NCBI GenBank assembly: GCA_000708835.1
Contig: DF237240.1
Coordinates: 43,697-107,696, forward strand
Direction of reading: 5' to 3'
Source of the DNA: Klebsormidium nitens
Lineage: Eukaryota > Plantae > Klebsormidiophyceae
DNA: 64,000 nt
The notes under the pieces were generated by a model. That model searched no databases. It saw nothing but the letters and a program-made list of their open reading frames with translations, and was not told where the DNA came from. A program made the translations under genes and the position numbers. Numbering within the stretch: the first letter of the stretch is position 1; each line of letters begins with the position of its first letter. This document shows, one piece after another, positions 41,578 to 64,000 of this stretch.

Positions 41578-43252
41578 TCACTGCGCCTGAGAGGGGGCCG
41601 CGTTCTCGGGAAGGCAGTGCTTCTTGTGGGTTCGCCAATGAAGCTTCTGGTGTTCCTTACTGCATGAGATGGCAAACGTTAAACACTGTGTCAGGCTACG
41701 CGACGCATGCCCACGAACAACATTCGCGAAATCACATTGATACTGACTGGATAGTGTTTCTTCGTTGCTTTCTTCTGACAGTCGAGGTAAGAACTTGGTA
41801 GCCTTTTGCGGGCCCGATTCGAACCTACTAGACAGGGTTGACACTGCTTGCATCAGAGGGTATGTGGTGAAAGATATATGCATTTCAAAAGGAAAGGAAT
41901 TCGAAGAACAAAGAAAGTCTGATCATGCCTGATGCAACTTTAGTCGATGAGTGTTCCAAGACAGGGTGTGGCACTTCGCTTGAGAACAGCAGCTTATCGA
42001 GGACACGGTCGTTGCTGGAATTCCCTTGACCTCGAAACCTGAGCTCCATCATACTCGCAGTCAGACGAAGTATTTGTACGTACCTGCAGTAGTAGGCCAC
42101 CGTGCAGCGTGCACACCTGTTGCAGCTCGTTCCCTGATCGTCATCGGCAGTTTTTGAGCAGCCTTCCCAGGAGCAGACCGTTGGGAGTCCAAGCAGCTTC
42201 GCTTTGGCATGTTTCCACACCGCTTTTCTGGAGATCTCCGAGACATACGGAATTTTAGAAGGCCTCCTTGCAAGCGTGGCTAAGAGTTCTTCCCAAAGTC
42301 CAGGGCAGTGAGAGTTGAGGAGACTCGCATACGGCTCAAGAAGAGACGGCATCCCAGCTCCTTTCAGTGTGTCGACCAGATGCAAGGCTCCACACAAGCG
42401 CAGAAGCACAACGAGGCACGTCATCACTGCTCCTCCGGATATTTGGTCAGCTTGCGTGCGGCTTGCTCTTTGGAAGATGCTTGCTAGAAGCCCAAGATAC
42501 CCCGTTCCTATCGCCCACTCTTGGCTGTCCTTGTGAAGAACAAGTGCGAGAAGTAGCCTGGCCACTTTCTCCTGGGCGTTTACGAAAGCGTGTGAAGGAA
42601 TCTTCTTGACGACCTCATCCAAAAAGAGAAGCTGAAGCGAAGGAAGAAGATCGTCGGCACCACGAATCAGTTGACGAAAGTTTTCCGAAGCCCGTGCGTA
42701 GTTCACCAGGCCCGCAAGGCTTGGGGTCAGGAGCGGATCAGGTCCAATGATTGAAGGTCTTTCATTGCCTCGAGGATCCTGGGAACGAGGAAGATTCTCC
42801 ATGAAGCAGCGCAGAAGCTTTTCACCGGTGCCCTCTTCTCTGAGGGTGAATATCGCCACTGACTTGCTTGCCGCCAGGGAGGTGATGGCGAGGTATGATG
42901 CATGAGCAACCCCCTCTTTCTCGTTCTGGAATCCAGCAAAGAAGAAGCCGGTTGACCCCACAGGCTTGAACTCCATGGGCTTGCGGTCTTCAAGTACCTG
43001 GCTCAGTAACTTCTTCGATACTGATCCTTGCTGATAAATTGCTAGCTCCTGAACCAACCTGGGAGTGCTAGGATTGCCGGACACCTTTTGATTGATTGCA
43101 TCTTGAAGAGCTGATGCTGCGTTCATTAGAACCATCGGATCGTCCGAGAGAAGCTTCGAGCCAAATGCAGCCACTGTTTTTTCCATTGTGGTCTCTTCGT
43201 CGGCTATTTGAGGCCTGCAGATTCCAAAAGCAGAGCATATGGTCGAGGACAT
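41578..43252 (-). CDS. Protein with a helical (ARM-like) N-terminal region and a C-terminal MYND finger, 2 exons (43252-~42082, ~41661-41578)
   Basis: The spliced finger reads CSWEGCSKTADDDQGTSCNRCARCTVAYYCS|KEHQKLHWRTHKKHC, with a GT-AG join. The ARM-like assignment rests only on helical, Leu-rich character. Confidence 0.82.
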
Positions 43253-45686
43253 CAGATTGGCTTGAAAACTTGTGTTGCTACACTAAGTGGTGTGCCATTC
43301 AAAGCTCTGCTTTTAATTTACCGTAGTGCCGGGTGCTTCGACGAAAGGAAGAGAAAAGAACTCTCAAGGTTCTGGGTTTGTAACAGTAACAATGTTTTTG
43401 CCGTCAGACAGTCAGCGGTAGCATTTCCAAAGATTTCATGCATTATTTCTCAGTCACTTTGCAACCAAGAGAACCTTTTCTCCAAGATCACAGTTGATAA
43501 AACATCAAGACCAAATCGATCGAGAAAAGAGGCGGCAAATCATTGATCGTATTCACTCCTTCTGCAAGGGTTGTTGAAGAGACACTAAAGAGTACTTGGA
43601 TGATTCTTTTTAAGGGACGCAGAGCTCGCAAGTTTTGCTGAGCCCTTGTCGCGTAAGCATGCACAGAAAAGCTTCCTTAGCAAAGTAGTCTTTAAGAAGT
43701 GACCTGCAAGTATTCGCGCAAGAACCCAAACAAACTTAAAAACAAAGACTTGGATGCACAGAGGTAGTCGTCGCTAGCGGCTATTGTGCTTACCGTTCCA
43801 GGCTTCAGGCTTCTAGGTATGTCGGCTTCTTGCGTTCAAGAACTTCAAAAGCGAATCATGCATTAGCACTCGAACGCGTGAACTGAATCCTGCGTTTCAA
43901 AGTTTGTTTTCAGCTCTCTCTCCTTCCAGCATCAACCCTTTGACCTCCTGGCTTCAGAAACAACGATTCAATGCTATGCTCCTCTAAGGACTTGTGAGAC
44001 CTTTGGACGCTGATCTGCATGAAGGCAGCATGAAGGTCGCTCCAGGTCGCTGCTGGTCTCCTGAGGTTTGGCAGATCCTTCTTAGTCTTCTGAAACTCAT
44101 GGAGGACTCCGTTTGATCAAAGAAGTCTTTGCGCTCACGCAGCTCTCCCTGTAAACTTAAGCAGGTTGGGTTGTTGTCTGGTCGGGGTACAGACGCACGA
44201 GACTCGTCTGCCTGTGTGGAGTCGCAGGTGATACTTTGCAGGTGCTCGGAGGACATTGAACCGGCCGCTACTTAGCAGATTCGAGCGCGGCTTTTGAAAG
44301 CCAAGTGATTGCAAGCTTGTGGACGTAAGCAAGGCCTGGATTTGCAGTTAATGTTGACATCATCGTCCAGAGCCAGCGCATGGTACCAACGTGACATTGC
44401 ACGCTGGCAGGGGAAGCTAGAGCGACTTCGTCCCAGCTGCCTTGAGAGATCCTTGAAGCTCCAAAAGCTACATTAGAGAGCTTGTTGAAGAGCGCACAGT
44501 GGTCCCTCGCGCACTCCATGATTTCTGCAGACGCACGACGGTCATATCGAATTGTGACATGATTTGCTGGCCTAGGATCGACTAACCGTGCTCAGGAAGT
44601 TGGCCTGGTACATGTAGGAAGGCTTTACAATGTCGCCCGAGCTGCATCATTGCTTTGCTTGAAGCAACACTCTGGCAAGCTAGCCACGCGAACTGCGAGT
44701 GCATGGTTTTATTGCCGCTAGCGCTGCGGGCGGCGATAAGAGAAAACTTAGCAGCTTGCGGCGCAACCGAATTGCGCTGATATATACGAGGGGGAATAAC
44801 AACGTATCGTTTACCCATTGGCATGCCATGGTACAAGTGTACACGTAGCATTCATAACTCGATTGACATACACCGCCACATGATGCGTTGCAGCGCATGC
44901 ATGCAAGGTGCATTTCAATGTATCATATAAGATGCTTCCTGAAGTGCTCATTTGTAAGTCGGTTGAGCCGCCGCCATTATCGCGTTGGCGGCCGTGCTGC
45001 AGACATCATGCCATGCATCATTAACATACGTGCGCGCGGGCCGCGACTGCGCCGCTCGCTTGCAATTGGATGACGGCGGACTTTGACGGATGACTTCGGC
45101 GGACTTTGATGTAAGAACTTTCGGATGGTCACGTGCTCCCAAGTCATCCGACCTGCCAGCAGCTAGGTAGCTAGTAACCTGCCTTACTAACATAAGGCAA
45201 GCATAGCTCCTGGCACATACCAATGCTTCAAACCAATGATGTTGTTAGAAACCCGTGTATCGTTCCTTAAGCTAGATACCTAAGAAAGTAACGTTAGCGC
45301 TTACTCACTATCGAATTTAGTACAATATGTACAGCTCTTCCAATTCTTCAAGTTTCCTAGCCGCTAAGTAACTGGAATTGGGGCTCGATCGACTTCACTC
45401 CGTCGGAGCCTCGCTCTGAACGCGATCTCCGATCCCAGCGCAGCCTCGAGGTTGATGCAGGCAGGCATCAGACATAATGAGAACCAACAAACGAACCTAT
45501 ACTTAAAGCAACAGATCAGAAATTGTGAAATATTTTTCGGCTCATTTTAGGCTATAGGTCTAAGCTTCTGCCACAGGATATAGGCATCTTTCAATAACCG
45601 AACCCCTCTGCGGAACCAGCACCCGCGCCACCGACCCTTACTGCGGGAAGAATCGCCTGGTGCTATGGTCCTCAAGGGAACACGTG

Positions 45687-48600
45687 TCAAGAGTCAAGGA
45701 CAGGTTGCCCCAACCGGTAGTCGGCCCAAAGCGCCATGATGTGGTCCCGGTCACTGACGAAATACGCAACAATGCCCAGAGCGAACGCAGCGCTGATGCA
45801 CCCCTGCAGGAAACACATAGCATACCGTCAGAATTGCCGGGCAAGATCCTGCGGGAGCGTCCTGACTCAGGTGCTTCGGTTGTGACATAGCGCCTTGTTT
45901 GTCTGAACAAAGAAGATGAGGGCATGTGTAACTGTTGAATCGATCGTGCAGATGTCAAAAAAGCGCTCCTAAGCTAGTGGTAGGCGGATACTTGCGCAAA
46001 GTTGGTCACTCCACCTGAAACGGAAGAGTGCCCCGAACAAGATATCATCCCAAACAAGGACTAAGAGACACACAACCCCTGCGGTTCTCAGTCGCTTCAG
46101 CGCGGCTGGCGACGAGGCACACGCAGCTGGTCACAGCAGTGAAGTGCTAGATATACTCTACCAGTAAAACTAGTAAAGCAATTGCCCAATCTGAGATCAT
46201 GTAGAAGATAGGACAACTGGGTGACATACTAGCGCGAACCGATAAGTGAAAAGGATGAGAAGGAAAACGATCGATGAAAAAGGCACCGAAAGAGCGCTTA
46301 CTGCAACAAGGCTCGCCGTTAGGCCTGGCCGCTCCCGGGGGTTGTGGGGGAAGAACCAGAGAATCGCGCCAACGTACCAGAGGAGGTTGAAGAAGAAACC
46401 AAAGATGAACCTGTAACACAGAAAATGGGCTTAAAGCAGGTGCAGGCAAAAAGCCCTCTTGACGCTGACTCGAATGCAGGGGAGAACCTCGACAAAGAGC
46501 AAACATGTTAAGGTTCGAACGAGAGCCACATTAAAATCCGACAAAGCCAAGATCAGAAAACCGTATCAGAGGCATTCCCAAATGACGACAATGCAACACC
46601 GATCACAAGCCGGGGTCTAAGCTCTTCGAAAACCATCTAAGACGCTGGCTTTTGAATCATTGCCGAAGGATCGCTGGAGTTGCTGGAGCTACACCAAGTA
46701 CAGCGCATCTGCCTAGAACTTGAAGACACAAGGGGCTATTTTGAATGTGGTAGAATGAACGTAGATTGGCAACTGCCTAGAACTTGAAGACACAAGGGGC
46801 TATTTTGAATGTGGTAGAATGAACGTAGATTGGCAAGAGGTAAAAAGTGAAGGAATTAGGACAATAGCAGTACTGAGAACGAGCTTGCTTAGGCACCTGA
46901 CGTGGCTTGGATTTCAGAAGGGCGTGAGAAACACTTTATGTGAGTGCTGGAACGGGGAAGCTGAAAGCAGAACAGGCGACACGTCACCAAACGTCCCCCC
47001 TATGCTGGGACTTGGGGGTTCACTGCTCCTGGCCGTTTCAAGCCGCTGCGGACTTGTTTAAAGGACACAAGACGGAATTGCTCACCGATTCCTAACGAAA
47101 GCTGCAAGGCGATCACCGACGCAAGCTTCTCAGAGTGTGCTGGCAAGATGATTGGAGCGTAATCTGTAGAGCCTAACTTAATCCCGTATCGGAGGCCAAA
47201 TGACCAACCATAATACGAGACGTCATCCTAAAGACAAACATTGTAAGAGAATGCAATATTTAAAGGGGGCACAGATGCTCACAGGAACCACCCAATACCG
47301 CAACCGCAGCACGGCAGGGGCCTGTCGTAACCGTACTCTCCGCTCAGCTCGTGATACTCGTAACCACCCGGTCCGGTCTGCAACAAAAAGGAAGAGTGGT
47401 TTCAGACTTGGTTGTTCTTGAATAGTGTCAAAACTGCAAATAATGGAAGAACAGTGGGGACTGAGTCTGGTGGTAGATTCTGACAGCCCGAACAGACATT
47501 TTCCTCATCCCGCAGGTGAAATGCTATTGCTCGTGAAGTAAAGCTGCACCAATGGGGACCAGACTGAGCCAGAACACTCTTGATATTGTTGCACAGAGTA
47601 TACAAATTGATATGGACTGCAGTCAATAAACCCTGGAACTGGTTCATTTTTCTAAACACTGGCTGCGACTCTGTACCCAATAACTTTAGTGGGGAAGTTG
47701 CAGCTGGACGCAGTACACTGTCTTGAGCTCCACAAGCTCCTCCAGCCACTACACTCCCTCCACTGGGCATTGCAAACAAGTGGTCACTTCGTCGAGTCAA
47801 AGCAAGATTCTGCACCATTGAACACAAGGACCCACCACAGAGTAGCCGGGCTGCGGAGGCGCCTCTGCCTGCCAGTACTCAGGACGCGATGTCATCTGTG
47901 GCTGCTGCTGATAGTGCGTTTGCGACTGGGGCCGCCCCCCCCGAGTGTACTGCTGATATCCCGTATAAGGTATATAAGCGGGCGGCTGCGCCTCCGTCAA
48001 TGGGGGGGCAGAAGGGGCCTCACTGCTACTAGGGGCAGCCTGCAGAGAATCAGGACAAAGTCAAACTCTGGGTCTAAGCAAATTGAAGAAAGACCCTCAC
48101 CACCTGCTCTTCTGATAGACTACTCAGCATTGAGGAGCGAATGGTAGCTCCTTGATAAACTTCTGTGGCATTTGGCAGCATCAGAATCACAGTGCACAAT
48201 CTCTGTTATGGTGGCATGCTGAGGAGCGGCATGTCAGGTAAGGGGCACTTTTCAAGCTCGCAGAAGGAGCAGGATTGTGCAGGTAATATGCAATGCCGGA
48301 ACCACATGCCCTTCCTCTGCACCAACTTCTAATCGAGGCAGTCAAAAGTGCACGGTATATGTACAAACGGAGCCTTTGATGCGCAGCGGTTCTTGAAGCT
48401 TCGAGGAGCACAAGGAAATAAGCGGCTGAAAATTGTTGTGACGGCTCTCGAAGGAGTCTTGACAGCTTCAGGCAACACACTCTTACCTTCATGGGTACTC
48501 CTCCAAAACCCTAAAACTCGACTTCAAAAGTGGACCTCAACATGCGGTGGAACGTGGGGCAAAGAACAACTTGGTCATGCGGAGTATGAAAACCCAGAAC

Positions 48601-48826
48601 CACGTCTACAGCTAACACACTGTATCAGCATTGCCACAGTGCATGCAGGATGTAGACCAAGCAAGTACATAGAGCAACCACGAACGTGACTGTCGCTTGT
48701 TATGCACAACGACGTACACAACACAGCCTGTGTACGACAGGGCAGAAGGAACCACACTTTTCGGCTGCGCTGTTCAAAGGAAGCAGAAAACCATACCTGC
48801 TCCTGCGATGGGTCGCCAGCCGCCAT
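45687..48826 (-). CDS. Putative multi-exon gene: Pro/Gln/Tyr-rich N-terminus and a C-terminal TM segment; middle exons unresolved
   Basis: Clean junctions give MAAGDPSQEQ| (48826-~48797) and AAPSSSEAPSAPPLTEAQPPAYIPYTGYQQY...PGYSV| (~48040-47836). A terminal exon GCISAAFALGIVAYFVSDRDHIMALWADYRLGQPVLDS* spans 45803-45687. Linkage of these pieces is not shown. Confidence 0.35.
46709..46836. repeat. Perfect 64-bp tandem duplication
   Basis: CTGCCTAGAACTTGAAGACACAAGGGGCTATTTTGAATGTGGTAGAATGAACGTAGATTGGCAA at 46709-46772 and 46773-46836. Confidence 0.95.
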
Positions 48827-50638
48827 GAAGGCCCCTGTAAAGTTTTTGCACTCCCAGAAGAGACCTGTCAACCTGAAGCATGCAACCCTAGCCCCCTGCC
48901 AACCACTCACACGCTCTCCCTCTCCAAAGACCGTCTTCCTCAGAATCCAAGTTCTCGCGCCCTCAAACTTCAACACGATTTCGAAGTGCTCAGCAATTCA
49001 AGAGCCAGCGCAAGCTACACAGTGCAGAGGGCACAAGTGCGAAGGTTGCGGGTCCAGCTGGCGCGCGACCGCGAGGCGCGCCGCCCGCGCTAGACTCTGA
49101 GAGTGCAGTTGCCCAACTCCCTCGGGGAATCGCCCGTAGTATAAGCTATCCGCCATAAGGGCTCTGAGGGCCAGCACTCACCATTACCGCGCTGTGGCGG
49201 ACCGTTCCCATCCGGTTCCTCCTAAAGCACTCCCTCAGGCCCCACACACAATGCCAATTAGCCAATGGTCATCAGCAGAGAGAGCAGGCTGGGTAGATTG
49301 TGGTTGAAGCTTTGCTTCAGCCTTCAGCTCATAAAAGTCAGTGTGGTTGGCACTTCAAGGCGTTGAAGCAAGTCCGGCCACAGAGCCGGCTCCGAGGCTC
49401 TGTGGCGCCTTGCGGCAGATCTCTAACCTGCTTGCACCACTGCCAAGTGTCATTCCAGAAGCAAGAAGATGCTTCTCTGAGTCAGCAACTTGATGACTCA
49501 GCACAGCTGGCGGCGGCACCCGATGGCGCTGCCTGGCGTCCTCTGGCAGCTTTCTGAGCTCGTTTTGATGGGTTGCAATGGTCTCCAACTACATTTCTCA
49601 AAAGAACAAAGGGTCCATTTCTCAGGAGAGTCTTGTGGCAAGCTCAAAAGCAGGAAGACTGTGGTCGGCGCGTTGTGTACGCACGCGTTTAGACATGCTC
49701 AGGTAAGTGTTTTGCTTCTGTAGCTCTCAAACATCAGGATCAAGCACCTCTTGTACAGGGCCGCGCGCTTGGGAATTGCTAACCAGCATTCAAAACACTT
49801 GATGGTCTGTGCTGTCTGCTGTAAGTGGAATGCTTTTTGTCTGCCGTAAGTGGAATGCTTTTTGTCTGCCAGAAGGGGCTTTCTGTCAGGCCTCCTTAGT
49901 ATACTGGGTCAGCCTGACGATTGTGGACAATACCAACATGCACATGTGCCATGTGGGATCGCCGCCAGTTCCAGAGTAATGGGTTTGCAAATGCATGTTG
50001 GCGAGCGCCATGAGCTCTCAAACACGTCTCCAGCCTCATGCATGTCCTGCACTCATCACAATGGACTTCCTTTTTCCATGGGTTTGTCTCCACACAAAAG
50101 CACTTTGGTCAGGGGCAGGGATCAGATCACCTGAGGCTTTGATTCTGATCCGTTAATACTTTTCTGCATGCAGGGTGGTTGCCCACAAACAGCGGAGTGT
50201 GTGGTCAGCAGCGCCGCGCACCGGGCTTTGAGGTAAGCCCTGTGCTTAGGCTTCTACGCATCTGCTGCCTGCCGACCTGCGCACTTGCAGGCTCACAGAA
50301 TTGTGTTATCAAAGCAGGAGTCACTCAGGCGATGGCCAACATCCACCCCCCGGGCCACCAGGATCATCGCTCAATCATGCGTCCGTCAACTCCGAGGGGT
50401 CCCCTGAGTATTGTCTGGTCGTGTTTTGCAGCAGATGGCAGAGACAACTACACCGCCGCAGCAGGAGTCGGCAGCCTCACTGTTTGATGGCACCCCTGCC
50501 GCTGAATTGCTGCCTTCGACTCTGGTGAGCTCACCAAACCTGATGGCTCAGATTCTGTTGCGTGGGAGGGGCGCATAGTCAAGTCCTGGGACATGGCATG
50601 GACCAAGGGAGCGATACGTGCTGTACAAGTGGAGTGCT

Positions 50639-51326
50639 GACAATTTGCATTGGCGTAGAAGGTCGAATGCATAGATCAGTGGGTGCAGATTGACGACCCC
50701 ATGCCGAGCGCTTTCTGGGTTCTTGTGAGAGAGAGGGATTCGAGGAGCTGACAAATTGCATGGTTTTAGAGGCTTGAATGCATAGACCAGTGAGTGCAGA
50801 TTGTCAGCCCCATGCCGGGGGCTCTCTTTGGTTGTTCTTCAGTTCATGGACCGAGGGGCTGACAATCTGCATTGGTTGAGAAGCGACAATGTAAAGACCA
50901 GTGAGTGCAATTTGTCACCCCCATACCGGGTACTTTCCTAAAGGGCTTCTGTGGAGGAGCTGACAATTTGCATTGGTTAAGAGGCTTCAATGCATAGACC
51001 AGTGAGTGCAAATTGTCCGGCCCCATGCCGGGCGCTTTTCTTGGTTCGTCTGGAGTTATCTAGCTGACAATTTGCATTGGTTGAGAAGCTTCAATGCATA
51101 GACCAGCTGTTGCAAATTGTCGAGCCCATACCGGGCACTTTTCTGGTTCTACTGGGAGCGATAGAGGGAGGTTCTGTCAATCTGCATCAGTTTAGAGGGT
51201 GGATTGCATAGACCAGCTGGTGCAGATTGTCACGCCCATGCCGGGCACTTTTCCTGGTTTTACTGGGAGCGATAGATCTAGGTTCTGACAATTTGCATTG
51301 GCTTAGAAGGTCGAATGCATAGACCA
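50639..51326 (+). repeat. Array of 7 palindromic units (104-115 bp period): 11-bp arm, 34-nt spacer, inverted 11-bp arm
   Basis: Left arms G(A/T)CAA(T/A)(T/C)TGCA at 50639, 50750, 50861, 50962, 51066, 51176 and 51287. Right arms TGCA(G/A)(A/T)TTG(T/A)C at 50684, 50795, 50906, 51007, 51111 and 51221. The last unit is cut by the N gap. Confidence 0.93.
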
Positions 51327-51680
51327 NNNNNNNNNNNNNNNNNNNNNNNNNNNNNNNNNNNNNNNNNNNNNNNNNNNNNNNNNNNNNNNNNNNNNNNNNN
51401 NNNNNNNNNNNNNNNNNNNNNNNNNNNNNNNNNNNNNNNNNNNNNNNNNNNNNNNNNNNNNNNNNNNNNNNNNNNNNNNNNNNNNNNNNNNNNNNNNNNN
51501 NNNNNNNNNNNNNNNNNNNNNNNNNNNNNNNNNNNNNNNNNNNNNNNNNNNNNNNNNNNNNNNNNNNNNNNNNNNNNNNNNNNNNNNNNNNNNNNNNNNN
51601 NNNNNNNNNNNNNNNNNNNNNNNNNNNNNNNNNNNNNNNNNNNNNNNNNNNNNNNNNNNNNNNNNNNNNNNNNNNNNNNN
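51327..51680. other. Assembly gap (354 N)
   Basis: Run of N directly after the palindromic array. Confidence 1.
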
Positions 51681-54600
51681 ACTGCTGCGAGCCCAGCGCA
51701 CGCTAGCCCAGCTGCCACGAGCCAGGCCCGGCCCCCAGCTGGTGGCGCAACCAGGAAAGCGAGGAGAGCGAGGGAGGAACTGGCCAGCTACCTCTTTGGG
51801 GACAAAGGTGAGAGCGGCACCTTGATCGGGTTGGGCTGATCGAAGCACCTGATCGGCCCTTTGCGGGAAATCAGATTCAAAGCGTTGGGGGGGCACTTTT
51901 GCTTAAGGGTCCTTGAGTTTGCAACTGTTCAGGACCTCAGAGCTCTTGTGTGTATGTCTAGGAATACGAGAAGGCGAGCTTCTACGCCCACACGAGTCAA
52001 CCAGGGCTTCACCTGTTCTCGTTTTTGATCCCAACTCTTCGTGCTTTCTTTTTCAGTTCCACACAGCTACCTCTGCGGAGAATGCAGCAACCCCGCGACC
52101 TTTGCGGTGCGCGGGAGCAAGGAAGGGAGCAACCTCAAGTACTTCTGCGGTGTGCATCGCGAGGTCACGGGCTGCTTCAAGATCGAGAAGACCCGGACAG
52201 GTGAGCCCTGTGCAACTGCCGGTTTGTGTACCACCGACACATTTGTATTGATCACTCGGCCAAGAGCTGCACCAGGCCCAAGCATGCAAGTATGCAGAGT
52301 TTGTAGGCATGTTGGCGGGCGTTCGCCGGCCTGTGTGTCCTGCATGTGAGCGCTCGTAGTAAAGACCTGTGCTTCTTGCTTTTTCAGAGTGGGCACGTGA
52401 CTGTGGAGTGTACAAGTTGAAGGCAGAGCTGGCGCGAGCGCTTGACGAGGAGTCGCGGCTGAGGTGCAATCGGGGTGAGGGTTTGTTTGGTGCAGAAGAA
52501 CGTGCCCTTGACTTTTGATTCAACGGACAGCACAAGATACCCTACTTTGCCAAGGCTATCCTCAAGTCGCACTTGACCTCTATTGACGCGCAGCTGTTTC
52601 AACCTTGTCGAAAACGAACACCCGTCAAGCTCTCGAGCTGTTTGCTTACATCTCCAGTTCGATGCGACCTTTCTACTAGCATGCAGAACATGACACTTTC
52701 CTTTTCCTCCACAGATTGTAACGGATGGCAGGAAAGCGGATACTGGGGGGATGCAACACCAAAAAGCAGACTCCTGATAGGTAAGTCGCTCGGATCATCA
52801 GATTGGGGCGATGAGACTCGGCTCACATCTGGTCCCCGAACCATAGGTGTTGCGCTCAGCATCTGTTGAAACTTTGAACGTTGGGCGGCGGTTCAGAAAA
52901 GGTCTCAACTTGTGCGCAATATGGTGTTTGAAGCTCAAAACGGCAGCTTGAGCCTTGACCCTTCAAAAGTCCGCGCTTATGTAGGCGCCTGCTCTTGCTC
53001 CGTTGAGTTTTGTCAATTCTTCACGGTCGTGAATGAAGGTCTGCCTATCTGTGTCAACAGCTAATGCTGTCCGGCTGACCCTTTGCAGCAAAGCTCTTGA
53101 TCATGGGTGGAATCGAGAGCAACCCAGGATGGTCATCGTCAAATGAAGCCAGCCCGGAAGGAGAGCGTCCTTCAGCATCAGAGGAGACGCACCAGCATCT
53201 GACGGCGGCGTGGCCGGAGCTCCGCATCCTCGTGATGTGAGCAACCTTTGACGTGTTTCAGTCAATCTCAGGGATGACATTGCTGTGTCGGAACCAGTTG
53301 ACCAGTTGACCAGGCCCAGCAGGCAATAGCCCCGGATATCAAGAAGTGGGCTGTCAAGCCTCTGTCCAAGGGCTTTCTGGGCACGGAGAAGACAGAGGGA
53401 AGGGGTCGAGTCAATTTGCACTGGCTTGAAGAATTGACTGTATAGAATCTGAGGTGCAAATTGACAGCCCAGGCATTTCGCTTCCCATCCTACGACCTTG
53501 GTTTTGATTCAGCGAGCAGGTGTATTGACCCCGCGCATGCCATCGTACCTCATTCGACCCACACACCCCTTGCATGATTGCTCCCTTAAAAGCGTACGTA
53601 TGTTATTAGGCCGCTTAAAATCATTGAACAAAAGGCTGCAAGACGGGACCGCCAGAATATGGAAGCTCCAGAACGTAACTCTCTATCTCTGCTTGCAGGC
53701 CGCAGCCGTAACTTCTGACGCCAACGGCGCCCTCGCAGACATGATCGCACACGCTGAGGTGCAAATGAACTTGCCTGCATCCGATGTGGACACGAGAAGG
53801 CCGCCGGAGCAGGTAAGAGGCCCATCATCTCTAGTGTACTTCCCTCCACGAGTGATAGATCCCTTCAAGCTGCGTTTCGTGACCAGGCATGAAGTTTTGG
53901 TCGTTGCTTCGTGAGCTGGTCAGCTTGTGGGCCTAATATGCATCATCCAGTGTTACTGAATAGGGGGGGCAGGGTGTGCAGGTGTCGTCAGAAGCGGGAC
54001 CGTCGAAGAGGAGGAGGAAGAGACTCGTCAAGGTCTCAGAACTTGCCAGCGGAGCCTCGGTAGAACTTGCTGCAGGCAGCGTGGCCCAACCCGCTGCCCG
54101 CACTGGCGCAGAGTAAGCACATGTGCCCGACTTCTAGACACGGTATCAAGCCTTGCTGGGGTGTTGCTAGGAGGGAGTTGCGCGCGCACAGAGTGGTTAT
54201 TCTAGTGGAAGCACATGCAATTATACGCATCCCAAGAACCTGTCAGGTTGATCACCAGTGGGTAATCAACCCCCTGACCGTGCTCTCCTTCTGCTTGGTA
54301 TCCAGGGAAGCAGGAGAGTTGGAAGAGGACCTTGATGATTCGTCCGAGCGGGCCGCGGGCAGCCGGCGCATCAGGCGCAGGGCAATGGAGGAGCGAGTGG
54401 TCGTCGACTTCTTTGCAGAGCGCAGCCAGCAGAGAGAGGCTTGGGCGGCCAGAGAAGAGGAGATGTTCGGCCCACCCTCCTCACTAGAGCAACACGATTC
54501 TGCTACAGATGTTCCAGAATTGGAGGCCTTGGCAACGTGAGGCCCTGCTCTAAACTTGGCTTATCCTACTGTCTCTCCAGGAAGTCGCTGCAGTCAATGA

Positions 54601-57600
54601 AGTCTTTCAGCCTGGTCAAGTAGGTTCCAGTTGCGAAAACTAGTCGCATGCTTTTGCAATGGTTCCAAACCCCGGGTCCCGAACCCATTGCCAAACAAGG
54701 TCTGAAAAGTGTGGTTGGGAGGTCAGAGCTCAACCGCTTCTTGCCGCTGCAGCGACGATGCCGAGGCCGAAGAGCAGGAGCCGCTGGGGAGGCATAGTCC
54801 AGCACCCACTGCGCCCGACCTGGTGAGCCCAGCGCTGCCTTTCAAGGAGTACGGACCGTGCCTTTGAATCTTATTAGAGCGGTCTGTAGAATTTGACTTG
54901 CAGGATTTTCCGTGCAAGGCGGGGCCTGGCACGATCGTGGCGAGTTTGAAGCGAAGCGGACTGCTGACAGATCTGAAGTATTTCATGCAGCTCAGTAATG
55001 CTTCAATGATCGAATGTGTGTTGGGTTGTTGTTGGCATTCACTCTTACACGGAGTGGGCTGCAAAGCTGGCTTTGCTTTTTGGGAGCTCACCCTACCGCA
55101 CACACCCCCCCGCATTGAGACCGCCGCAGTTTCTGGTGCTCGTCCAAAGCTCACCCATTTGCAACCTGTTGGCCGTCAGGTACGGAGCCAGACAGCGAAG
55201 CAAGGCCATCGACGCCAGTGGCTCCGAAGACTGGTCGGCCGACATCCAAAAAGCGACGGTAAGCTCGTTGGTCGGTATTTAACACGTATCTTCGCGTCCC
55301 CGACACAAAGGCGACTCTTGTGTATATATTGTATTCCGTCAGTTGCTTCCTTGGGTACTGTGAATAACAAAGGCATCCTTTGGGGTCCACTTGATTCCCT
55401 GGAGTTCTCCCAGACTGCTGCTTTAGGTCCCTTCAGCAGCAAACCGTTGACCAACAGTGGCCTGCATGATTGTCGTGTATTGATCCACTCTCTCTTCTTG
55501 CGCATCTACAGCAAAAAGGCAAAAGCGAATCCTGTCCCCATGGACGAGGCGGCTCGGGAGGCCGGTCGAGCGGCTGCGGCAGCTCATCTCCAAGCTGTGG
55601 GGGCACTGAGGCCCTCGAGAACGCAGCGCGAGGGGCAAGCCGTTCATCAAACGGAGCTGGGTGATTTCGGAGGCCCGCCTCATGCACCCGCCGTCGTAAG
55701 TTGCCGTGGAGCATACTTTTTCATTGAAGCGGTTGAGACTTTCGGGCACATGTGTTTGCCGTTGTCTCACGTCAGTTAATCAGCTTGTGCGCACAGTTGT
55801 TCCGCTTGGCCTTGGCAGGCATCTAGGCGACCTTTCTTCTGAGCCCGAGGCTTTAAGTGCTGTCAAACATGCAGTTTGCTGTGATAGCCCTGGGCGTTGA
55901 AGACTTGCGAGCCTTTTCCAAATCTCCATGCCTGACTCTGCATAACTGGTCCGGCTTGCTCTTGAACGTGAGTGCGAACCCCTTTTCTTTGTCTTTCTGG
56001 CGCAGGGGCTGGTGACCGACGCTCCCATCCAAAACGTTGGGGCCCTGGTCGACCGCCTGAACGCCAAGCGGGACGCCGAAGAGGCGGCCGCGCGCGAGGC
56101 GCGGCTGAAACGCTACCGGCGCGCGCGACCCCTGGGTGCTCCACGTGGGGCGGGGAATTCCCTGGCCCGCACCATCCAGGACCCGAGCCCTTCCTCTCCT
56201 TTGCCCCCTGTCATCCTCTCTTCTCGGGAGGAGGAAGAAGCCGCCCCAAGCACAGCGCAGACCCCCCCAGCAGCCTTCTCTTCACCGGCCGTGGAAGATG
56301 AACGGGCCCCGCCGTCGCCGCCGGCCGACGATCCGGGTTCGGTTTTCTCCCTCTCGCAGCCCCATGAGCCCCCCTCCCCCGCCCGGCACCCACCCTCTCC
56401 CCCCCTCGCTGACCAGCCCGAGGAGCCCCCGATCATAGCCCCGCCTCTCCTCGAAAACGCACAGCCCGAGGTGGTTCCCAGTCAGCCCCCAGCAGCCGCC
56501 CCTTCCCCTTTCCCAACCCACCAGGAGCAGCCGCCCGTCGACCAGGCGCTTGCAGCCGACCCGCCAAACCAGCCCCGGGCAGCGGAAACAAGCCGGCCCG
56601 CTACAGCGGAGTCGTCCGCAGAGCTGTCGCCCGCACTTCCGCCCACGGAGCCGCCCGCGCAACTGCTTGGGAATCCCCCTCAGGCTGCGTCGGTCGAAGA
56701 TAGTGGGCCCGGCTGGTGCAAGAAGCTAGTGGAGGCGCTCCGGCAACGGCAGGCAAACGGGCGTGCAATCGTGGTGGCGGAGGATGTGCACCAGGAGGGG
56801 GCAAAGCGCTATGGCAGCTTCAAGGATGTTGCGGCCTTGGTGGCGCACCGGAGGTCGCTCGGTGCGTTCGCGCACCTGTACGAGCTCATCCAGGACGATG
56901 CCTGCTGGCGCATCTACTTCGACCTGGACTTTTCGCTCCCAACCGAGGACCCGAGCGACTTCGAACGGCGCCTGGAGGCTTTCCACCTGGTCAGAGACCG
57001 GGTCCTAACCTCGGTGCTGACTGTCCCCGAGGGTGCGCTCCGTTTCCAAGCTTGCGAGGCGCACGGTCCAGCGCGGCCCCCGAAGCAAGAGTTTAAGTAC
57101 AGCGTGCACGAGGTGCTGGAGGGGTTCTACCTAAGGGGGCTGGAAGCCAGGAGGGCATTCGGGAAAGCCTTTCGGTGCTTCTTGGAGAATCCCCCGGACG
57201 ACCTAAAGCCGAGCATCGAGCTCCTCCGGAAGGACGGCGGATCCGCCTACATCTGGGACGGGTCCGTCTACGGGCAACATCGCTGCTTCCGAATGTTGAG
57301 GTCCTCCAAGTTCGGGGACCGTTTCCGCTCCCTCCTTCCCTCCGAAGGCAGCTCCGAGGCGATCGCTGACCACCTGGTCTGCCTCTACTCGGAAGCGGAG
57401 CTGGCTGGGTCCACCCGGATCAGCGCCGACCTTCTCGGAGAGTGGGCGTCCGCGCGGCGCGAGCCGCCTGCCCCGGACCGCGTGGGGGCCTTCCGGCAGA
57501 GGGCGCTCGCCCTCGACGAGGCGAGCACCTCGGAGGGGCCCGGCGAGGACCTGAGCGCGCAAGAGCGGGCCGTCCTCCTCGCCCGCTACCAGGAGGACCA

Positions 57601-60600
57601 CGCGGGGGCCGAGATCGACCGGGTGGTGCAGGAGCGGCCGGGGCTGTTCTTTGTCCACTTTCGCGCGCCCCAGCCCACGTGTTGCATCGCGGGCAGGCGC
57701 CACACGTCCCCAGGCAACCAGAACCCGTACCTGATCTACAAGCGAGACGAGCCGCGCATCGCCCGCTACCAGTGCTTTGCCAACAGCTGCAGGTAAGGCG
57801 CCCTTGTAGTGAGCCGAAATCTGAAAAGCGCCCAGCATGGCTCGGTCGACAATCTGCACTGGTCGCTCTTTACATGCGAGATTAGAAGGTGGTGCAGATT
57901 GTCGGGCTCTTTCAAGGTTGACCAGCTCAGCAAATTGGAGAAGCATCAAGCATGGCCGTGGGCTGTCAACTTGCACAAGGGTCTCTACACCGAAGCCTCT
58001 TAAACCAATGCAGATTGTCAAGCTCTTTGAAAGCTTCTCTGAACCTGGTCTTAGCAGTTTTAGAGAAGCGGCAAGCATGGCTCGGCCGTCAATCTGCACA
58101 GGCCGTTCTTTACATTCATGCTTGTAAGTCGGTGCATTTTGTCAAGTTCTTCGAATTGGATCGGCTCTGTACTCCACGAAAGCGCACGGCATGGCTTGGC
58201 CGTCAATCTGCACATGCCGTTCTTTACATTCATGCTTGTAAGTCGGTGCATTTTGTCAAGCTCTCCAAGTTGGATCGGCTTTGTACTTCAGGACGGCATG
58301 TTTTGGCCGTCGATATGCACAGGTTGTTCTTCACATTGAAACTTAGATGGTACTATTCTCAAGGCCAAAGTCAGGTTTCAGGCATTTTCAAGGCCACGGT
58401 AAGGTTGCTTTTGCTACGCTGTGGGCCTGGTTGCGGGTCTGTTGTGGACTTAGGTTCAAGGCTGCGGTCAGGCTAGTTGGGGGGGCGCGGTCGCGCTTTT
58501 GTTGAGGCGTGGTGAGGCTGAATCGGGAAGGCTGTAGTCAGGCTGTAGTCAAGCTTCTGCGGGCCGCGTTTGAAGACGCAAACCCGGCTAATTTAAGGGC
58601 CTCGATCAAGCTCTCTTGAGGGCGCATCAGACTGGATTCGGCTGACTGGTGTGACCGACATTACGACACCCTGCATGGTGTTAGGTGCTTGGGCTGTTGT
58701 TGAGAGCGCCTCTTGTTCCCTCTTTGCAGGGGCGAGTGCCGCGTGCTGCCCCTGGACATCCTCACCACGCTGGGATGGACCGAGGACTACGAGGAGAACC
58801 TGGGAATGCGCCCCTACCCCGCGTTCAAGCTCGCTCACGTGCGCAAGCGAACCATCCTGATTTCGGCCAAGAAGGGGGTCGGAAAGTCGAAGGCTTTCAT
58901 GGAGTGGCTGGTGGCCATGGTTAAGCTGAACCCCGGCCTCTCCTTCGTCCTGATCGGGGCCAACATCTCGCTGTCCCGCAAGTACCATCAAGATCTGGTG
59001 GACGCGGGCGTGGAAGGCGTGGTGCTGTACCTGGAGGCGCCCCCAGGGCCAATCACTGCCTCTCGTGCCGTGGTCTGCATCAACTCCATTCACCGCGTGC
59101 GCGCCAAAATGGACGTCGTGGCAATGGACGAGATGGACATGGTGCTCACCAACCTCAACTCTGAGGTCATGAGCCAACGGGGCCGGGTGCTGTCCTGCTT
59201 GGAGGCGGCTGTGGCGGGGGCGAAAGTCGTCATCGGCATGGACGCCAACATCGACTGCGCGCGGGTGATGGAGTACCTGTTCATGGCGCGGCCGGATGGG
59301 GTCCTCCACACCATTCGGAACAGGGGCCTGTACCCGGCCAAGCGGCAAGCGACCATCCGGATCTTTCCGCCAGGGAGCGGGCTGCTCGACTGCATCGGCG
59401 CCGCAGTACGGGATGTGCTGGACAGGGTCGCTCGAGGCACGAAAGTCGTCGTGAGTTCTTCTTAAGACCCTCCTGGCACTAAGAAGCCTTATGCACAGCG
59501 CGCTCGATTTCATCCCTGTGATCTTCTCAAGCACAATGAGAGAGCGTCTATGTCCAAGGTATAAGGCAAGTCATGCGAAGCATCTTCTCTGCATATTCAC
59601 CTTGTGGCTTTGGGGATAGGTGTAGCATGGAGTAGCTGTTTCTGTGCACTCCACCTATGATGGGAGCCTAGTGAGCACTGTCTTGCCAAACATGACACAA
59701 TTTGTCTTTTGAGGCCGTTTTGGGGGGCAGCTCTGGTGAAAGGCCGGTTCGGGGGATAGTTATAGGGCCAATTTTGATGAGGGTCAGTTTGGAGCCATTT
59801 TTTGGGGCCAGTTTCAAATTGAGTGTACGCCAGTGCGAACGGGTCTCTGTAAGGAACGATCGCATCAGCTGCTTTTGCCTTAGGTCTTTACGTTCTAAAA
59901 GCTGACGACCGTGCTCTCGACTCTTGTTGCGCAGTGCCCGTCGACCTCCAAGCGCTTCGTGAAACACCTCGAACACGATTTCAACGTCGAGAACCCACCT
60001 TCCGAGTCCGATCGACGCGGCGTCTTCCTGCACGCCGACAAGAGGTCGAAAGCCGACGAGGAGTTCTTCCAGAAGGCGATGGCCGACCCGGACACCTACT
60101 TGGAAGCGGACTGTGTGGCTTTCTCTCCAAAGCTCGGCCCGGGTGTCTCGAAAGAGAAGCCGTATGCTGAGGAGACGGTCGCCTTCGCCCTCAACAACCT
60201 CAACGGCCCTGCCGTTGAGACGCTGCTCCAGCAGCATGCTCGCTTCAGGACGGTCACTAACTCCACCATCTACTACAAGCAGGCGGTGAGCACTGCAGTG
60301 GACCTGCCGCGCTCTACTGAGGCGGTCTTTCAAGCCATCGAACGGGACGACAAGCAGATTGTCAAGATGCTCGGCGACGCAGCCGGCTTCCAGTTCCTGA
60401 GGGGTTCGCAGGGTATCTGCGACCGCTCCTCCGCGAGCTGCGTCTTGTACGCAAACAACATCCTCGCCAAGGTCGAAAGCTATCTGGAGTACGTGCCAAA
60501 GCTGAAGGCCGACCTCGAAAAGCAGGGCTACGAGGTGACGGTCGAGCACGTCGAGCCAACGGTGAGGGTGCCGAGTAGTGAGGCGAAAAACTGGAAAGCG

Positions 60601-62816
60601 CCCGGCATAGCTCGGTCGACAATCTGCACAGGTTGTTCTTTACATTCCAGTCTATTAGGTGGTGCAGATTGTCAAGCCCCTCAGGTGGCCCTTACAGTTG
60701 CAATGATCAAGTACTAGGCTTGAGTAGGGTTAAGCTAATGGACTGCTTTTGGGCCGCGGTCAGCGTGATCTTGGGGCAAGGTCAGGCTGGTTTGGCGTCT
60801 GCTGTGGGCATTGGTTTTGGTCGGGTGTGGGCTTGGGTTCGGGGCACGGTCAAGCTGTTTTGGGGTGGGGCTTCAGGCTGATTTGTGGCCGCGGTGAGGC
60901 TGGTTCTGTGTTTGCTGTGGGTCTGGTTCCGGGGCAGATTTCGGGGCCGTTAATAAGCAAACTTGGGGCGCAGTCAGGCTGATTTTGAAAGCGCGTTTAG
61001 GCTGGTTCGAGTCTGCTGTGGGCCTGGATTTGGGACTACTTAAATTGGAGCCGCGATCAAGTTGGTCTTTGAGGCGCGGTCNNNNNNNNNNNNNNNNNNN
61101 NNNNNNNNNNNNNNNNNNNNNNNNNNNNNNNNNNNNNNNNNNNNNNNNNNNNNNNNNNNNNNNNNNNNNNNNNNNNNNNNNNNNNNNNNNNNNNNNNNNN
61201 NNNNNNNNNNNNNNNNNNNNNNNNNNNNNNNNNNNNNNNNNNNNNNNNNNNNNNNNNNNNNNNNNNNNNNNNNNNNNNNNNNNNNNNNNNNNNNNNNNNN
61301 NNNNNNNNNNNNNNNNNNNNNNNNNNNNNNNNNNNNNNNNNNNNNNNNNNNNNNNNNNNNNNNNNNNNNNNNNNNNNNNNNNNNNNNNNNNNNNNNNNNN
61401 NNNNNNNNNNNNNNNNNNNNNNNNNNNNNNNNNNNNNNNNNNNNNNNNNNNNNNNNNNNNNNNNNNNNNNNNNNNNNNNNNNNNNNNNNNNNNNNNNNNN
61501 NNNNNNNNNNNNNNNNNNNNNNNNNNNNNNNNNNNNNNNNNNNNNNNNNNNNNNNNNNNNNNNNNNNNNNNNNNNNNNNNNNNNNNNNNNNNNNNNNNNN
61601 NNNNNNNAGCCTGGTTTGGCGGCTATTTGTGAGGTCCTTAGAACTTGCAGAGCATAACGTCTTTTGAGGAGTCGACATTTGGGGCTCACCCCGCCACCGG
61701 ACTGTGTTTGCTTCCGTGGAATGATCGGACGTCCCACCATTTCCTTTTCCAGGACGGCGTCGGGAGCCCGCCCCCGGAGGTGCCCCTCGGCTTCGACGCG
61801 GAGCCAGAGCTCCTGACGGCCGAAGAGTGGCGAGCGAAGTACATCATCAGCTCGGAGCAGTACGAGATCCTGTGCGAAAGGCCTGAGGACCTGAGCCCAA
61901 AGGAGCAGCTCCAAGAGTTTCTGTTCGAGATGGTCACGAAGGAGTACAAGGTCGACCCCAACCGGGTTGATCACGACTTCTACACCCGCTTTTGCGCTGA
62001 CGAGGACGAGGCGAAGGCGACAAGAGAGGCCCACGCAAACTATCTCAGGTAAGCGCCTCATTCCAGCTGTGCCCCGTCTCTGGAGCAAGAATCGAAGCCC
62101 TCTTGCCGCCATCAACTTATGTCCAAAGTGAACGATTAGTGAACTTCAAGTCTGCAGCATTTGTCCAGAGCCAAGGTTTCCGCTCATCTTTCTTCTTCAG
62201 CAGCAATGACGTCGTACGTCCGAAGTCTCATGTTTTTGCTGTCCCTCTGACGCTTCTCGTGACTTGCAGGTTTCGTGAGCACCGCTTCGATGCCCTCGTC
62301 GCGGACCTGGACAGAGCACTTGGGCATGCCAACGAGGAGGGCGTGGTTCAGGAGTACGTTCAGGAAATGCGCGACCCTGCCAACCGTGTGCCGTTTGCGG
62401 TGCGCGTGCTTGCCTTCCTCCTTGAATGCAGGGAGGAGCAGCTGAATCATGAGGCGGAGCGGTGGGAGGTCTCGGAGGAGCGCGTGCAGGCTGCCTATGC
62501 GGAGCACATCGGGCCCAGCAAGACCCGGTTGAAAACCATCTTCAACCTGTACGGTTTTGTGCAGCAGACCTCCAGACCCTCGCAGGCTGCAGATGGAAAG
62601 GTGAGGGAGAAGAAAGCTCAGAAACGGAATGCAGTAGGGAACGTGCTCAGAGCGGGCCTCGGGATCGAGCTCCATATGGGCTCGAGGAGCGGCGGCAAAT
62701 TCAAGCATCCCCACGTGTTGACGCCCGCCATCTGGTTGAGTCTGCATGAGCGGTACGGTTGGTTCAATCCGGAGACGGTTGCTAGGGAGGAGTGCATGAT
62801 CGATCCAAGAAGGTAG
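51681..62816 (+). CDS. Intron-rich primase-helicase fusion: Cys/His finger, linker, PrimPol/NCLDV-herpes-type AEP, UL52-type zinc finger, UL9-like SF2 helicase (>=1827 aa; 5' end upstream or in the gap)
   Basis: Exons: 51681-51807, 52057-52200, 52388-52474, 52715-52780, 53089-53231, 53699-53812, 53982-54112, 54306-54536, 54581-54619, 54753-54822, 54904-54994, 55180-55258, 55512-55695, 56006-57792, 58730-59450, 59935-60561, 61753-62048, 62270-62816. All are GT-AG and phase-compatible (5484 nt). AEP motifs: RIYFDLD, KYSVH, WDGSVYGQHRCFRMLRSSK. Finger: CCIAGRRHTS..N..YQCFANSC. Helicase motifs: SAKKGVGKS, AMDEMD, IGMDAN, VVCPST, CVAFSPKLGPGVS, QQHARFR. The core (56006 onward) is high confidence; the small 5' exons are less certain. 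Confidence 0.85.
53410..53465 (+). repeat. Single palindromic unit (11-34-11) in an intron
   Basis: GTCAATTTGCA-N34-TGCAAATTGAC, a perfect inverted pair. Confidence 0.9.
57848..58319 (-). repeat. Four palindromic units plus a half-site, in reverse orientation, in the intron between the primase and helicase exons
   Basis: Arm pairs at 57848/57893 (34-nt spacer), 57965/58009 (33), 58088/58133 (34) and 58202/58247 (34). The flanking AAAAGCGCCCAGCATGG is the reverse complement of the CCATGCCGGGCGCTTTT trailer seen in the 50.6-kb array. Confidence 0.9.
58370..58660. repeat. Degenerate G/T-skewed minisatellite (GCGGTCAGGCTG/TTTGGGG-like) in a helicase-gene intron
   Basis: Recurrent GGTCAGGCT, GGTGAGGCTG and GTCAAGCT words. 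A similar sequence occurs at 60720-61081. Confidence 0.6.
60618..60673 (-). repeat. Single palindromic unit (11-34-11), reverse orientation, in an intron
   Basis: GACAATCTGCA-N34-TGCAGATTGTC, preceded by AAAGCGCCCGGCATAGCTCGGTC. Confidence 0.9.
60720..61081. repeat. Degenerate G/T-skewed minisatellite running into the second gap
   Basis: Recurrent GCGGTCA(G/A)GCTG, TTTTGGG and GCTGTGGG words, related to 58370-58660. Confidence 0.6.
61082..61607. other. Assembly gap (526 N)
   Basis: Run of N inside a helicase-gene intron; it could hide an in-phase exon. Confidence 1.
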
Positions 62817-63073
62817 TGATTCATAGGCATTGTGGACAGTGCGCCAGGTGAAGAGTCGATCAATTTGCATCGCAGTGCGTGAATAGCGTCTTAGAAGGCC
62901 ATATTTATTATTGGTCTTAAGATTTATTGGAGCGATAAGGCAGATACAAAATTCAAATAAGATTGAAGGATGTCGCAATGAGACTGGCCGCCTGTGCTCG
63001 TTTGACTTTGCCCTGAAAGCACGCAGTGCTCTACTTTGTGACATGCATTGTTCTGAATGGTACGAGCTAAGCC

Positions 63074-63621
63074 GTCAATATGCACTGCTGTGGAAGCTTC
63101 GTTGTATAGCATCATGGTGCAAATTGACCCCCACCTTCGAACCAAACCGGGCACTTTGTGTTGGTTTTAGCGCATAGCTTGAAGCCGTCAATTTGCGTTG
63201 TTGTGAAGGCTTCTTTGTATAGCACGATGGTGCAAATTGACGGGCGTTCCCTCTAACCATGCCGTGCGCTTTTTACAGCGATGTTGTACTTGGATAGGTA
63301 GGAAGCCGTCAATCTGCACTGCTGTTAAGGCTTCTTTGTATAGCACAGATGGTGCAGATTGACGGAGGCCCCTTTGAACCATGCCGTGCACTTTAGTGGA
63401 TGGTAAATCCTGGTATATGCAGCCGTCAATTTGCCCCCTGGATAAGGTTTTGCTTGTTTAGCATGACGGTGCAAATTGACAGCCGCCGGGGGCCCCTCTC
63501 CAAAAGATCCGACCAGGCCAATTACTTCCTCAAATGGTGTCGTAAGATATAGTACGAACTCGTCAATATGCATGTGTGATGTGAAGACTTGCTTGTATAG
63601 TATATGATGGTGCAGATTGAC
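63074..63621 (+). repeat. Five palindromic units downstream of the primase-helicase gene
   Basis: Arm pairs at 63074/63118 (33-nt spacer), 63187/63231 (33), 63308/63353 (34), 63425/63470 (34) and 63562/63611 (38). Confidence 0.9.
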
Positions 63622-63728
63622 TCAGGCCCAGGCTTTGTGTGGGCCCATATCATTCAAGCTCGCGGGTCGCATACATACTTAGGAAAGAGCTCCGCTGAAT
63701 ACATCAACCTCGGGCCTTGAACCCTCCA

Positions 63729-64000
63729 ATGGAGCAACTTCCAAATGGACGCATGCTATGTCGAGCTGTTGGAGTCAGCTTTGAAGGCCGCCAAGACCTC
63801 GTTCGCAAGCTCCGACCCGGCCAGGATCTCGTGCTTCGAAAGCATTCGGGGAACGAACATGACATATACGCCATCGCAATATTCGACCCGGCGGATCGTG
63901 AAACTCCGTTAGGATTTGTTGGACGTGACATCAAACATCATAGAGTGTTCGACCCAGTTCGTAAAGAGACAGAGATGCCAGCACGAGTGCACCGCATCAA
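63729..64000 (+). CDS. HIRAN-domain protein, 3'-truncated by the window end
   Basis: Open from ATG 63729 to the end: MEQLPNGRMLCRAVGVSFEGRQDLVRKLRPGQDLVLRKHSGNEHDIYAIAIFDPADRETPLGFVGRD. This matches the HIRAN pattern V-G-x-x-F/Y...L-x-L-x-R...N-x-H/Y-D-x-x-A-I...L-G-F/Y-V. It is absent from the ORF track because there is no stop in the window. Confidence 0.75.
   Translation, partial: MEQLPNGRMLCRAVGVSFEGRQDLVRKLRPGQDLVLRKHSGNEHDIYAIAIFDPADRETPLGFVGRDIKHHRVFDPVRKETEMPARVHRI

Follow-up and report, generated by a model that had tools for sequence, protein, structure and literature searches.

The stretch of DNA under study, referred to as the window, comprises 64,000 nucleotides of the genome of Klebsormidium nitens, an alga placed basally in the lineage of the land plants (GenBank assembly GCA_000708835.1, contig DF237240.1, positions 43,697 to 107,696). 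Its right-hand part carries a spliced gene whose protein combines an AEP primase-polymerase domain, a zinc finger and a UL9-like SF2 helicase. The gene belongs to a dispersed family and is accompanied by short inverted repeats. The catalytic part is located at 56006-62816 and has five exons, numbered according to a 16-exon gene model:

56006..57792, plus strand: exon 12, proline-rich linker, AEP primase-polymerase domain (motifs I-III) and C-H-C-C zinc finger
58730..59450, plus strand: exon 13, RecA domain 1 of the UL9-like SF2 helicase (Walker A, Walker B DEMD, motif III), with a PF02399 match
59935..60561, plus strand: exon 14, RecA domain 2 (motifs IV-VI), splice joints observed
61753..62048, plus strand: exon 15, beginning of the helical C-terminal region, splice joints observed
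62270..62816, plus strand: exon 16, C-terminal region up to the stop, predicted DNA-binding part

Joined, the five exons encode 1,325 amino acids (aa) with zero internal stops; the AG/GT borders are canonical and the phases match, as an earlier sequence-only reading of the window had claimed. The motifs listed by that reading are all found by inspection, i.e., YFDLD, SVH and D-x-SVY..RCFR of the AEP domain, the C-H-C-C finger and the SF2 motifs I through VI. Of the three Pfam profiles it had proposed as a check, one returned a match: exon 13 is recognized by the UL9-type profile Herpes_ori_bp (PF02399, E 1.7e-17, 63.3 bits versus a cut-off of 20). The AEP exon matches no family at E<=0.5, hence neither Herpes_UL52 nor DNA_primase_S. 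The four finger residues are present and are conserved in relatives, and the Herpes_UL52 profile scores no match; the finger is presumably of the type named after UL52.

The AEP domain is assigned because a family profile built from 100 sequences matches human PrimPol (E 3e-15) and because a structural model displays the corresponding fold. Against solved structures the same profile finds the origin-binding protein of herpes simplex virus 1 (HSV-1) with E 2.6e-49. The structural model was generated by AlphaFold for the paralogue P0004 from a 100-sequence alignment (pLDDT 83). Its residues 37-286 superimpose on PrimPol (Z 21.8, root-mean-square deviation 3.1, 232 aligned), its residues 416-1085 on residues 42-811 of the HSV-1 origin-binding protein (Z 24.4, root-mean-square deviation 13.6, 529 aligned). 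In the model the likeness to the latter extends into the C-terminal part, though the domains appear shifted relative to each other. Exon 16 is predicted to bind DNA because this structural alignment continues to the C-terminus of the herpesviral protein. A search of a viral structure library places origin-binding proteins of giant viruses first among the named matches. To judge from these comparisons the domain architecture is that of the viral AEP/UL9-like primase-helicases, and primase, helicase and origin-binding activities are predicted.

The gene extends further upstream than these five exons, which form its 3' part: it has at least 16 exons and begins before 51681. The upstream exons are defined by splice joints and by tblastn of paralogues:

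51681-51807, 52057-52200, 52388-52474 and 52715-52780, plus strand: exons 1-4 of the model
53089-53236, 53699-53812, 53982-54112 and 54306-54536, plus strand: exons 5-8 of the model
54753-54822, 55180-55258 and 55512-55695, plus strand: exons 9-11 of the model
~49400-49703, 50174-50232 and 50432-50524, plus strand: probably additional 5' exons of this transcription unit (joint 50228-50434)

The upstream exons match the annotated N-termini of paralogues (tblastn of P0008, P0001 and P0002), and the link from 55695 to 56006 is observed in a divergent copy (public run X14). The first modelled exon extends into an N gap (51327-51680). A contig from a divergent copy connects 49400-49656, 50450-50489 and the region of 52087; the exons at 49.4-50.5 kb probably belong to the primase-helicase transcription unit. 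The model of 16 exons has 1,786 aa, allowing for one base at 53180 and one at 55191 (read as X); at each position the assembly lacks a base that paralogues and transcript contigs have. The missing base is present in contigs of runs X1 and X2 at 53180 and of X1, X2 and X3 at 55191. Because these contigs carry the extra base and the paralogues stay in frame, the frameshifts are likely assembly errors, with a real lesion in this copy as the lesser chance. The sequence-only reading had called the gene intact; this holds for the catalytic part, whereas the 5' part has the two one-base frameshifts in the assembly.

The region 51681-55695 encodes a CxxC..CxxH finger, a short helical region, a 2A-like motif (~53097-53132) and a disordered acidic/basic linker. 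An Atlas search with the N-terminal 345 aa gave no informative match. Finger and 2A-like motif are also found in the distant paralogue P0089, which is 45% identical over its AEP stretch. The motif ends in NPGW in the window, in P0001 and in P0008, and in NPGP in P0002 and P0089. The 2A/StopGo skip site is NPG/P (PMC5009743). The copy in the window is predicted not to skip; the NPGP copies would.

That the gene is spliced, as the sequence-only reading had proposed, is borne out by contigs from four public runs of three studies, which are presumed to be RNA. The introns between the five catalytic exons are skipped in all four cases: introns 1 and 2 at GT..AG in contigs of X2 and X8, intron 3 in X1 and X2, intron 4 in X1, X2, X5 and X8. 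Since contigs of run X20 keep the introns unspliced at ~100% identity, cDNA is the best interpretation of the joined forms. The joint of intron 3 spans an N gap (61082-61607), therefore no exon is hidden in this gap. The gene is spliced and transcribed; the joints fit this locus or near-identical sister copies alike.

These data bear on the least favored explanation, in which a giant-virus insertion is decaying at this locus, the contig is a contaminant or the assembly is in error. Methylated virus-derived genes are reported for K. nitens (PMC12344493), the viral library has the giant-virus proteins mentioned above as the nearest structural matches, and the assembly does contain two frameshifts. 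On the other side, all introns are canonically spliced, the catalytic motifs are intact, contigs supply the missing base at both frameshifts, host genes reside in the same window and no other viral gene was seen there. We consider this explanation very improbable; contamination in particular was rejected on account of the host genes and the splicing.

The locus is further characterized by inverted repeats:

50639..51326, unstranded: 5' array of ~111-bp repeats with six full 56-bp units and a seventh truncated by the N gap; the array lies in a 5' intron
53410, 57848, 57965, 58088, 58202 and 60618 (span 53410..60673), unstranded: six intronic inverted-repeat units
63074..63621, unstranded: 3' array, five inverted-repeat units 3' of the gene

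In total, 17 units of 55-60 bp (typically 56 bp, with arms of 11-12 bp and a 34-bp spacer) lie within 50639-63621; positions 1-50638 contain none, and neither do five shuffles. The palindromic sites noticed earlier are thus real and confined to this locus, with none in the other 50 kb. Four of seven units fold with z below -3, the units having been chosen as palindromes. Rfam has no match in 43000-64000. Pattern scans for the inverted repeat returned 41 and 5 loci elsewhere, none of them element-like by blastn or tblastn, and were dismissed as chance. Run X20 covers ~49.6-63.4 kb and neither 46.0-49.6 nor 63.4-64.0 kb, which is a lead to the element ends only. Introns 1 and 3 each harbour G/T-rich degenerate repeats following an inverted-repeat unit (58340-58700 and 60680-61081); they are 69% alike over 131 bp, which suggests an intron-to-intron duplication.

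The gene is not solitary. Eleven homologous K. nitens proteins are encoded on 11 contigs, all of different length, the protein model of the window's own helicase not being among the matches; including the window, the dispersed family has at least 12 copies, which answers the paralogue count called for earlier:

K. nitens paralogues 1-6: KFL_010460010, 009210030, 003010140, 001560170, 002280190, 011930020
K. nitens paralogues 7-11: KFL_001380250, 004140030, 005100080, 002040040, 004310010

In seven close copies the helicase is 73-96% identical to that of the window; two deep paralogues are 36-41% identical to P0004. In Klebsormidium subtile a copy is expressed that shares 92% identity with KFL_002040040 (P0159). 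A tree of 12 rows unites all Klebsormidium copies in one clade (SH-aLRT 100), and in a tree of 21 rows, exon fragments included, the support is 98. Young, short-branched clusters of 93-96% identity are nested within deep subfamilies. Among close copies the AEP domain is conserved to 78-88%, the helicase to 76-99% and the proline-rich linker to 41-71%, and the catalytic motifs are retained in close copies and deep subfamilies alike. Some siblings are altered: P0002 is without helicase, P0003 ends after motif IV, and the Walker B motif of P0001 reads DEMN; some truncations in annotated copies may be errors of the gene models. Near-identical contigs bear deletions of 2 and 59 bases. Broken siblings are as expected of mobile copies.

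The introns report on how the copies were made. The P0001 model reads through a stretch which is intron in the window (84% identity over 63 aa). A terminus no more than 8 residues from one of the four intron sites is found in 31 short hits out of 50, down to 30% identity; without three K. subtile transcript models the count is 28 of 47, with ~12% expected by our own arithmetic. Five short hits end with a stop exactly at intron 1. Because intron positions are common to relatives and P0001 reads through an intron stretch, the copies appear to have been made as DNA, introns included, and not via mRNA, and the introns to have been gained before the family radiated. Retroposition was rejected, as the introns are shared among copies. 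A recently endogenised virus is not supported by these observations: the introns predate a radiation reaching ~30% identity, and the flanks are host genes.

A sensitive search identified 353 relatives at E<=1e-3, of which 150 were listed. Twenty were looked up, and any names obtained were Klebsormidium. The single-copy orthologue conserved across green plants, which according to the sequence-only reading would indicate a domesticated host gene, is thus not what is found: the gene is multi-copy, and the named hits among those looked up are Klebsormidium only. Protein-pattern scans for close relatives found none in viral contigs or metagenome contigs. Four of the more distant relatives are encoded by viral contigs. 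Two of these contigs are large (234 and 548 kb), and the 548-kb one also has capsid and PolB of nucleocytoplasmic large DNA viruses; the other two measure 28.7 kb (L049) and 25.7 kb (L050). In L049 the helicase gene is accompanied by an A32 ATPase and a weak capsid match. These relatives appear to serve as the replication gene of viruses. L049 (1195-13321) and L050 (1707-13354) are AT-rich, and their AEP/UL9-like helicase is transcribed away from the A32-like ATPase and the capsid-like gene; they are candidates for Polinton-like or yaravirus-like viruses. The capsid-like protein of L049 has no sequence match in PDB.

A helicase tree (52 rows, a chosen subset of ~110 usable; LG+G4, quick, unrooted) contains a branch with SH-aLRT 100 which splits 36 rows, including both giant-virus anchors, from 16 rows. 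The smaller side comprises the Klebsormidium clade, two small-virus proteins and proteins from contigs up to ~22 kb. An AEP tree agrees weakly (support 83). The giant-virus origin proposed earlier is therefore disfavored, as the helicase is placed with virus-like replicons of 20-29 kb. The tree argues against a specifically giant-virus donor; it does not prove a small-virus donor because the small-virus branch is long and the tree unrooted. Similar proteins are listed by the Atlas in Mucoromycota-rich eukaryotic clusters.

We consider the gene to be the replicase of an old, virus-derived, capsid-less selfish DNA element which here occupies ~49.2-63.6 kb, and assign to this reading a probability of about one half. 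A mechanism can be envisaged as follows. The HSV origin contains paired boxes. By analogy to UL9, which recognizes these boxes, the C-terminal region may recognize the paired arms of the inverted repeats. The SF2 domain would melt the site and the AEP domain would prime; host polymerases would extend, none being encoded in the element. Extra copies might arise by local re-replication or as circles, introns included. The least supported step is insertion at new sites, which would fall to host repair or to a recombinase supplied elsewhere; none is visible. Where the final proline is kept, the 2A-like motif would release an N-terminal zinc-finger peptide from the replicase. A more far-reaching version is put forward tentatively, and we would sooner bet against it: a new class of transposase-free DNA transposons in eukaryotes, in which an intron-rich autonomous replicon arose from a viral origin-binding primase-helicase. 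It would be amplified from 56-bp inverted-repeat origin arrays, inserted by host repair and as old as the Klebsormidium lineage, with parallel expansions in Mucoromycota as a possibility.

Several observations count against a selfish element. Pfam finds no transposase, integrase, HUH or capsid domains in the gene or its paralogues. Between 48830-50620 and 62820-64000 no terminal inverted or direct repeats rise above shuffles, and co-variation of the repeat arms is not significant (p 0.08 and 0.20). Introns 1 and 2 are close to domain borders, and alignments tend to stop there anyway. Near-identical low-depth contigs contain 20 variants, 5 synonymous and 15 non-synonymous (two substitutions beside a gap being left out of this tally), and thus give no sign of recent constraint. 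The GC content at third codon positions (GC3) is 0.74-0.85 in the gene versus 0.52-0.65 in three host open reading frames (ORFs). The high GC3, at least 16 exons, expression and the K. subtile transcript fit a long-domesticated host family equally well.

Such a family would go back to a virus-derived gene which an early Klebsormidium ancestor domesticated and which then multiplied as ordinary host genes, e.g., for replication restart, repair or antiviral defence, the repeats being unrelated small intronic elements. The gene is intron-rich and expressed in several studies, old subfamilies are common to K. nitens and K. subtile, linkers have diverged more than the catalytic domains, and host genes are on the left. 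All of this would suit domestication. What makes it doubtful in our view is that the copies are dispersed instead of tandem, that several are truncated or changed at catalytic sites, and that young clusters are 93-96% identical. Moreover, inverted-repeat units flank the gene on either side and recur in its introns, with none in the other 50 kb, and the 20 relatives looked up by name yielded Klebsormidium or no name.

The neighbourhood of the proposed element is composed as follows:

48797-48826, 47836-48039, 47283-47377, 46303-46410 and one ending ~45810, minus strand: exons of a membrane-protein gene (45.7-48.9 kb)
4460-6797: pentatricopeptide repeat (PPR) protein, host gene
12412-12870: APC4, host gene
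18938-20029: serine acetyltransferase, host gene
34723-38101: SNF2 helicase, host gene (these four within 1-38100)
41885-43282, minus strand: long ORF, GC3 0.55, without clear Pfam match
26569-27315: 21-bp tandem array (26617-26826) within a pair of 32-bp imperfect inverted repeats 683 bp apart
63729..64000, plus strand: start of a HIRAN-domain ORF (138 aa in the database record; PF08797 E 3.4e-5, just below the curated cut-off)

A spliced gene lies to the left, diverging from ~48.8 kb head-to-head with the helicase unit. It encodes a small, cysteine-rich protein of the membrane, which presumably resembles the plant 'L18a-like/eL20z' membrane proteins. One of its introns contains a 64-bp tandem duplication of 98% identity (46705-46836). 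In X3 and X14 the contigs of this membrane gene are only ~88-96% identical, whereas element contigs of X3's study are >=99%; this contrast could mean a diverged paralogue, another strain or a recent transfer of the element. The ORF at 41885-43282 terminates in what we take to be a MYND-like cysteine pattern. The array at 26569-27315 looks like a small non-autonomous transposon.

The right side invites a different explanation, namely that the gene forms part of a bigger integrating element, either a derivative of an endogenous Polinton-like virus or a large transposon, with an integrase and perhaps a capsid past 64000 and the HIRAN ORF as the next module. The helicase does group with small virus-like replicons, and endogenous Polinton-like viruses of 15-30 kb pair a primase-helicase with an integrating enzyme, a tyrosine recombinase or an rve integrase (PMC10120064). 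Genes for capsid, packaging ATPase or integrase were not found within the window, whose right end is open: the repeat array reaches 63621 and the ORF runs past the window. A HIRAN search, in which proteins of 49-158 aa were considered, gave seven hits: the cluster of the ORF itself plus six relatives, which are 68-77% identical and come from contigs of 19-102 kb. Apparent frameshifts affect two of the six, and the HIRAN ORF may itself be a mobile gene family. Contigs of the seven runs compared leave the HIRAN ORF uncovered, which speaks neither for nor against its membership. Yet no named K. nitens HIRAN paralogue is among the seven hits, compared with 11 annotated paralogues of the helicase, and the GC3 of the HIRAN ORF is 0.48 compared with 0.74-0.85. 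The left neighbour is a spliced host-type gene, and endogenous viruses are intronless according to PMC10120064, as against at least 15 introns here. We regard a larger element as unlikely.

Viral genes in host genomes are as a rule silenced and poor in introns, and they decay. The replicase described here has acquired at least 15 introns, has split into deep subfamilies, is still transcribed and, under the preferred reading of a selfish element, is still copied as DNA. If autonomous, it would add an AEP/SF2-driven mode to DDE, HUH, tyrosine recombinase and PolB among the mechanisms of eukaryotic DNA elements. It would also provide a candidate origin sequence for the primase-helicase family, for which we know of no origins outside herpesviruses. 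If domesticated, it would represent a virus-derived second PrimPol with its own helicase. No description of this Klebsormidium family was found in the literature searched, which takes in few subscription papers and no supplements; gene lists such as those of PMC12344493 may include these loci.

Among known systems the fusion of AEP and UL9-like domains is described for mimivirus R8, pF1055L of African swine fever virus, SF2_hel of yaravirus and ostreid herpesvirus (10.1101/2024.02.29.582850). These viral proteins share the collinear order of AEP domain, zinc finger, UL9-like helicase and C-terminal region at an identity of ~25-30%. They differ from the gene presented here, which has at least 15 spliceosomal introns and an N-terminal extension of 700 aa with zinc finger and 2A-like motif, is chromosomal and multi-copy, and has no adjacent capsid or PolB. 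HSV-1 UL9 is the best match of solved structure for helicase and C-terminal part; mammalian herpesvirus UL9 is described without AEP domain (10.1101/2024.02.29.582850). Cellular PrimPol has the AEP fold and the C-H-C-C finger in common with our protein at ~20% identity. An orthologue of PrimPol was rejected because of the helicase fusion and because the nearest relatives are fused proteins of viral type. A giant endogenous viral element is likewise not at hand: up to 64000 the window displays no cluster of viral hallmark genes, and instead host genes and an intron-rich gene.

Endogenous Polinton-like viruses and virophages are likewise integrated, multi-copy and of similar size, and some possess a primase-helicase instead of a polymerase (PMC10120064). 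They are characterized by capsid genes, integrase, often terminal inverted repeats and no introns; the present gene has introns, and up to the open right end of the window no capsid gene, integrase or terminal inverted repeat was found. Helitrons and Replitrons are also copy-and-paste elements, derived from replicon proteins, with introns and with hairpins or palindromes (PMC10288648); as described there, an HUH endonuclease cuts and joins, whereas here AEP and SF2 domains are present and no HUH was found. Weak matches of the helicase part lead to RepA of the linear-plasmid prophages phiHAP-1 and VP882 (E 2e-3; E 2e-5 from a relative). RepA of such prophages, including N15, is a single-protein replicase with primase, helicase and origin-binding functions and thus a functional parallel, though bacterial and very distant; linear-plasmid prophages depend on a protelomerase. 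The gene, then, is neither a giant endogenous viral element nor an endogenous Polinton-like virus as described nor a Helitron or Replitron, and its protein, as far as sequence comparison can tell, belongs to the family of viral AEP/UL9-like primase-helicases.

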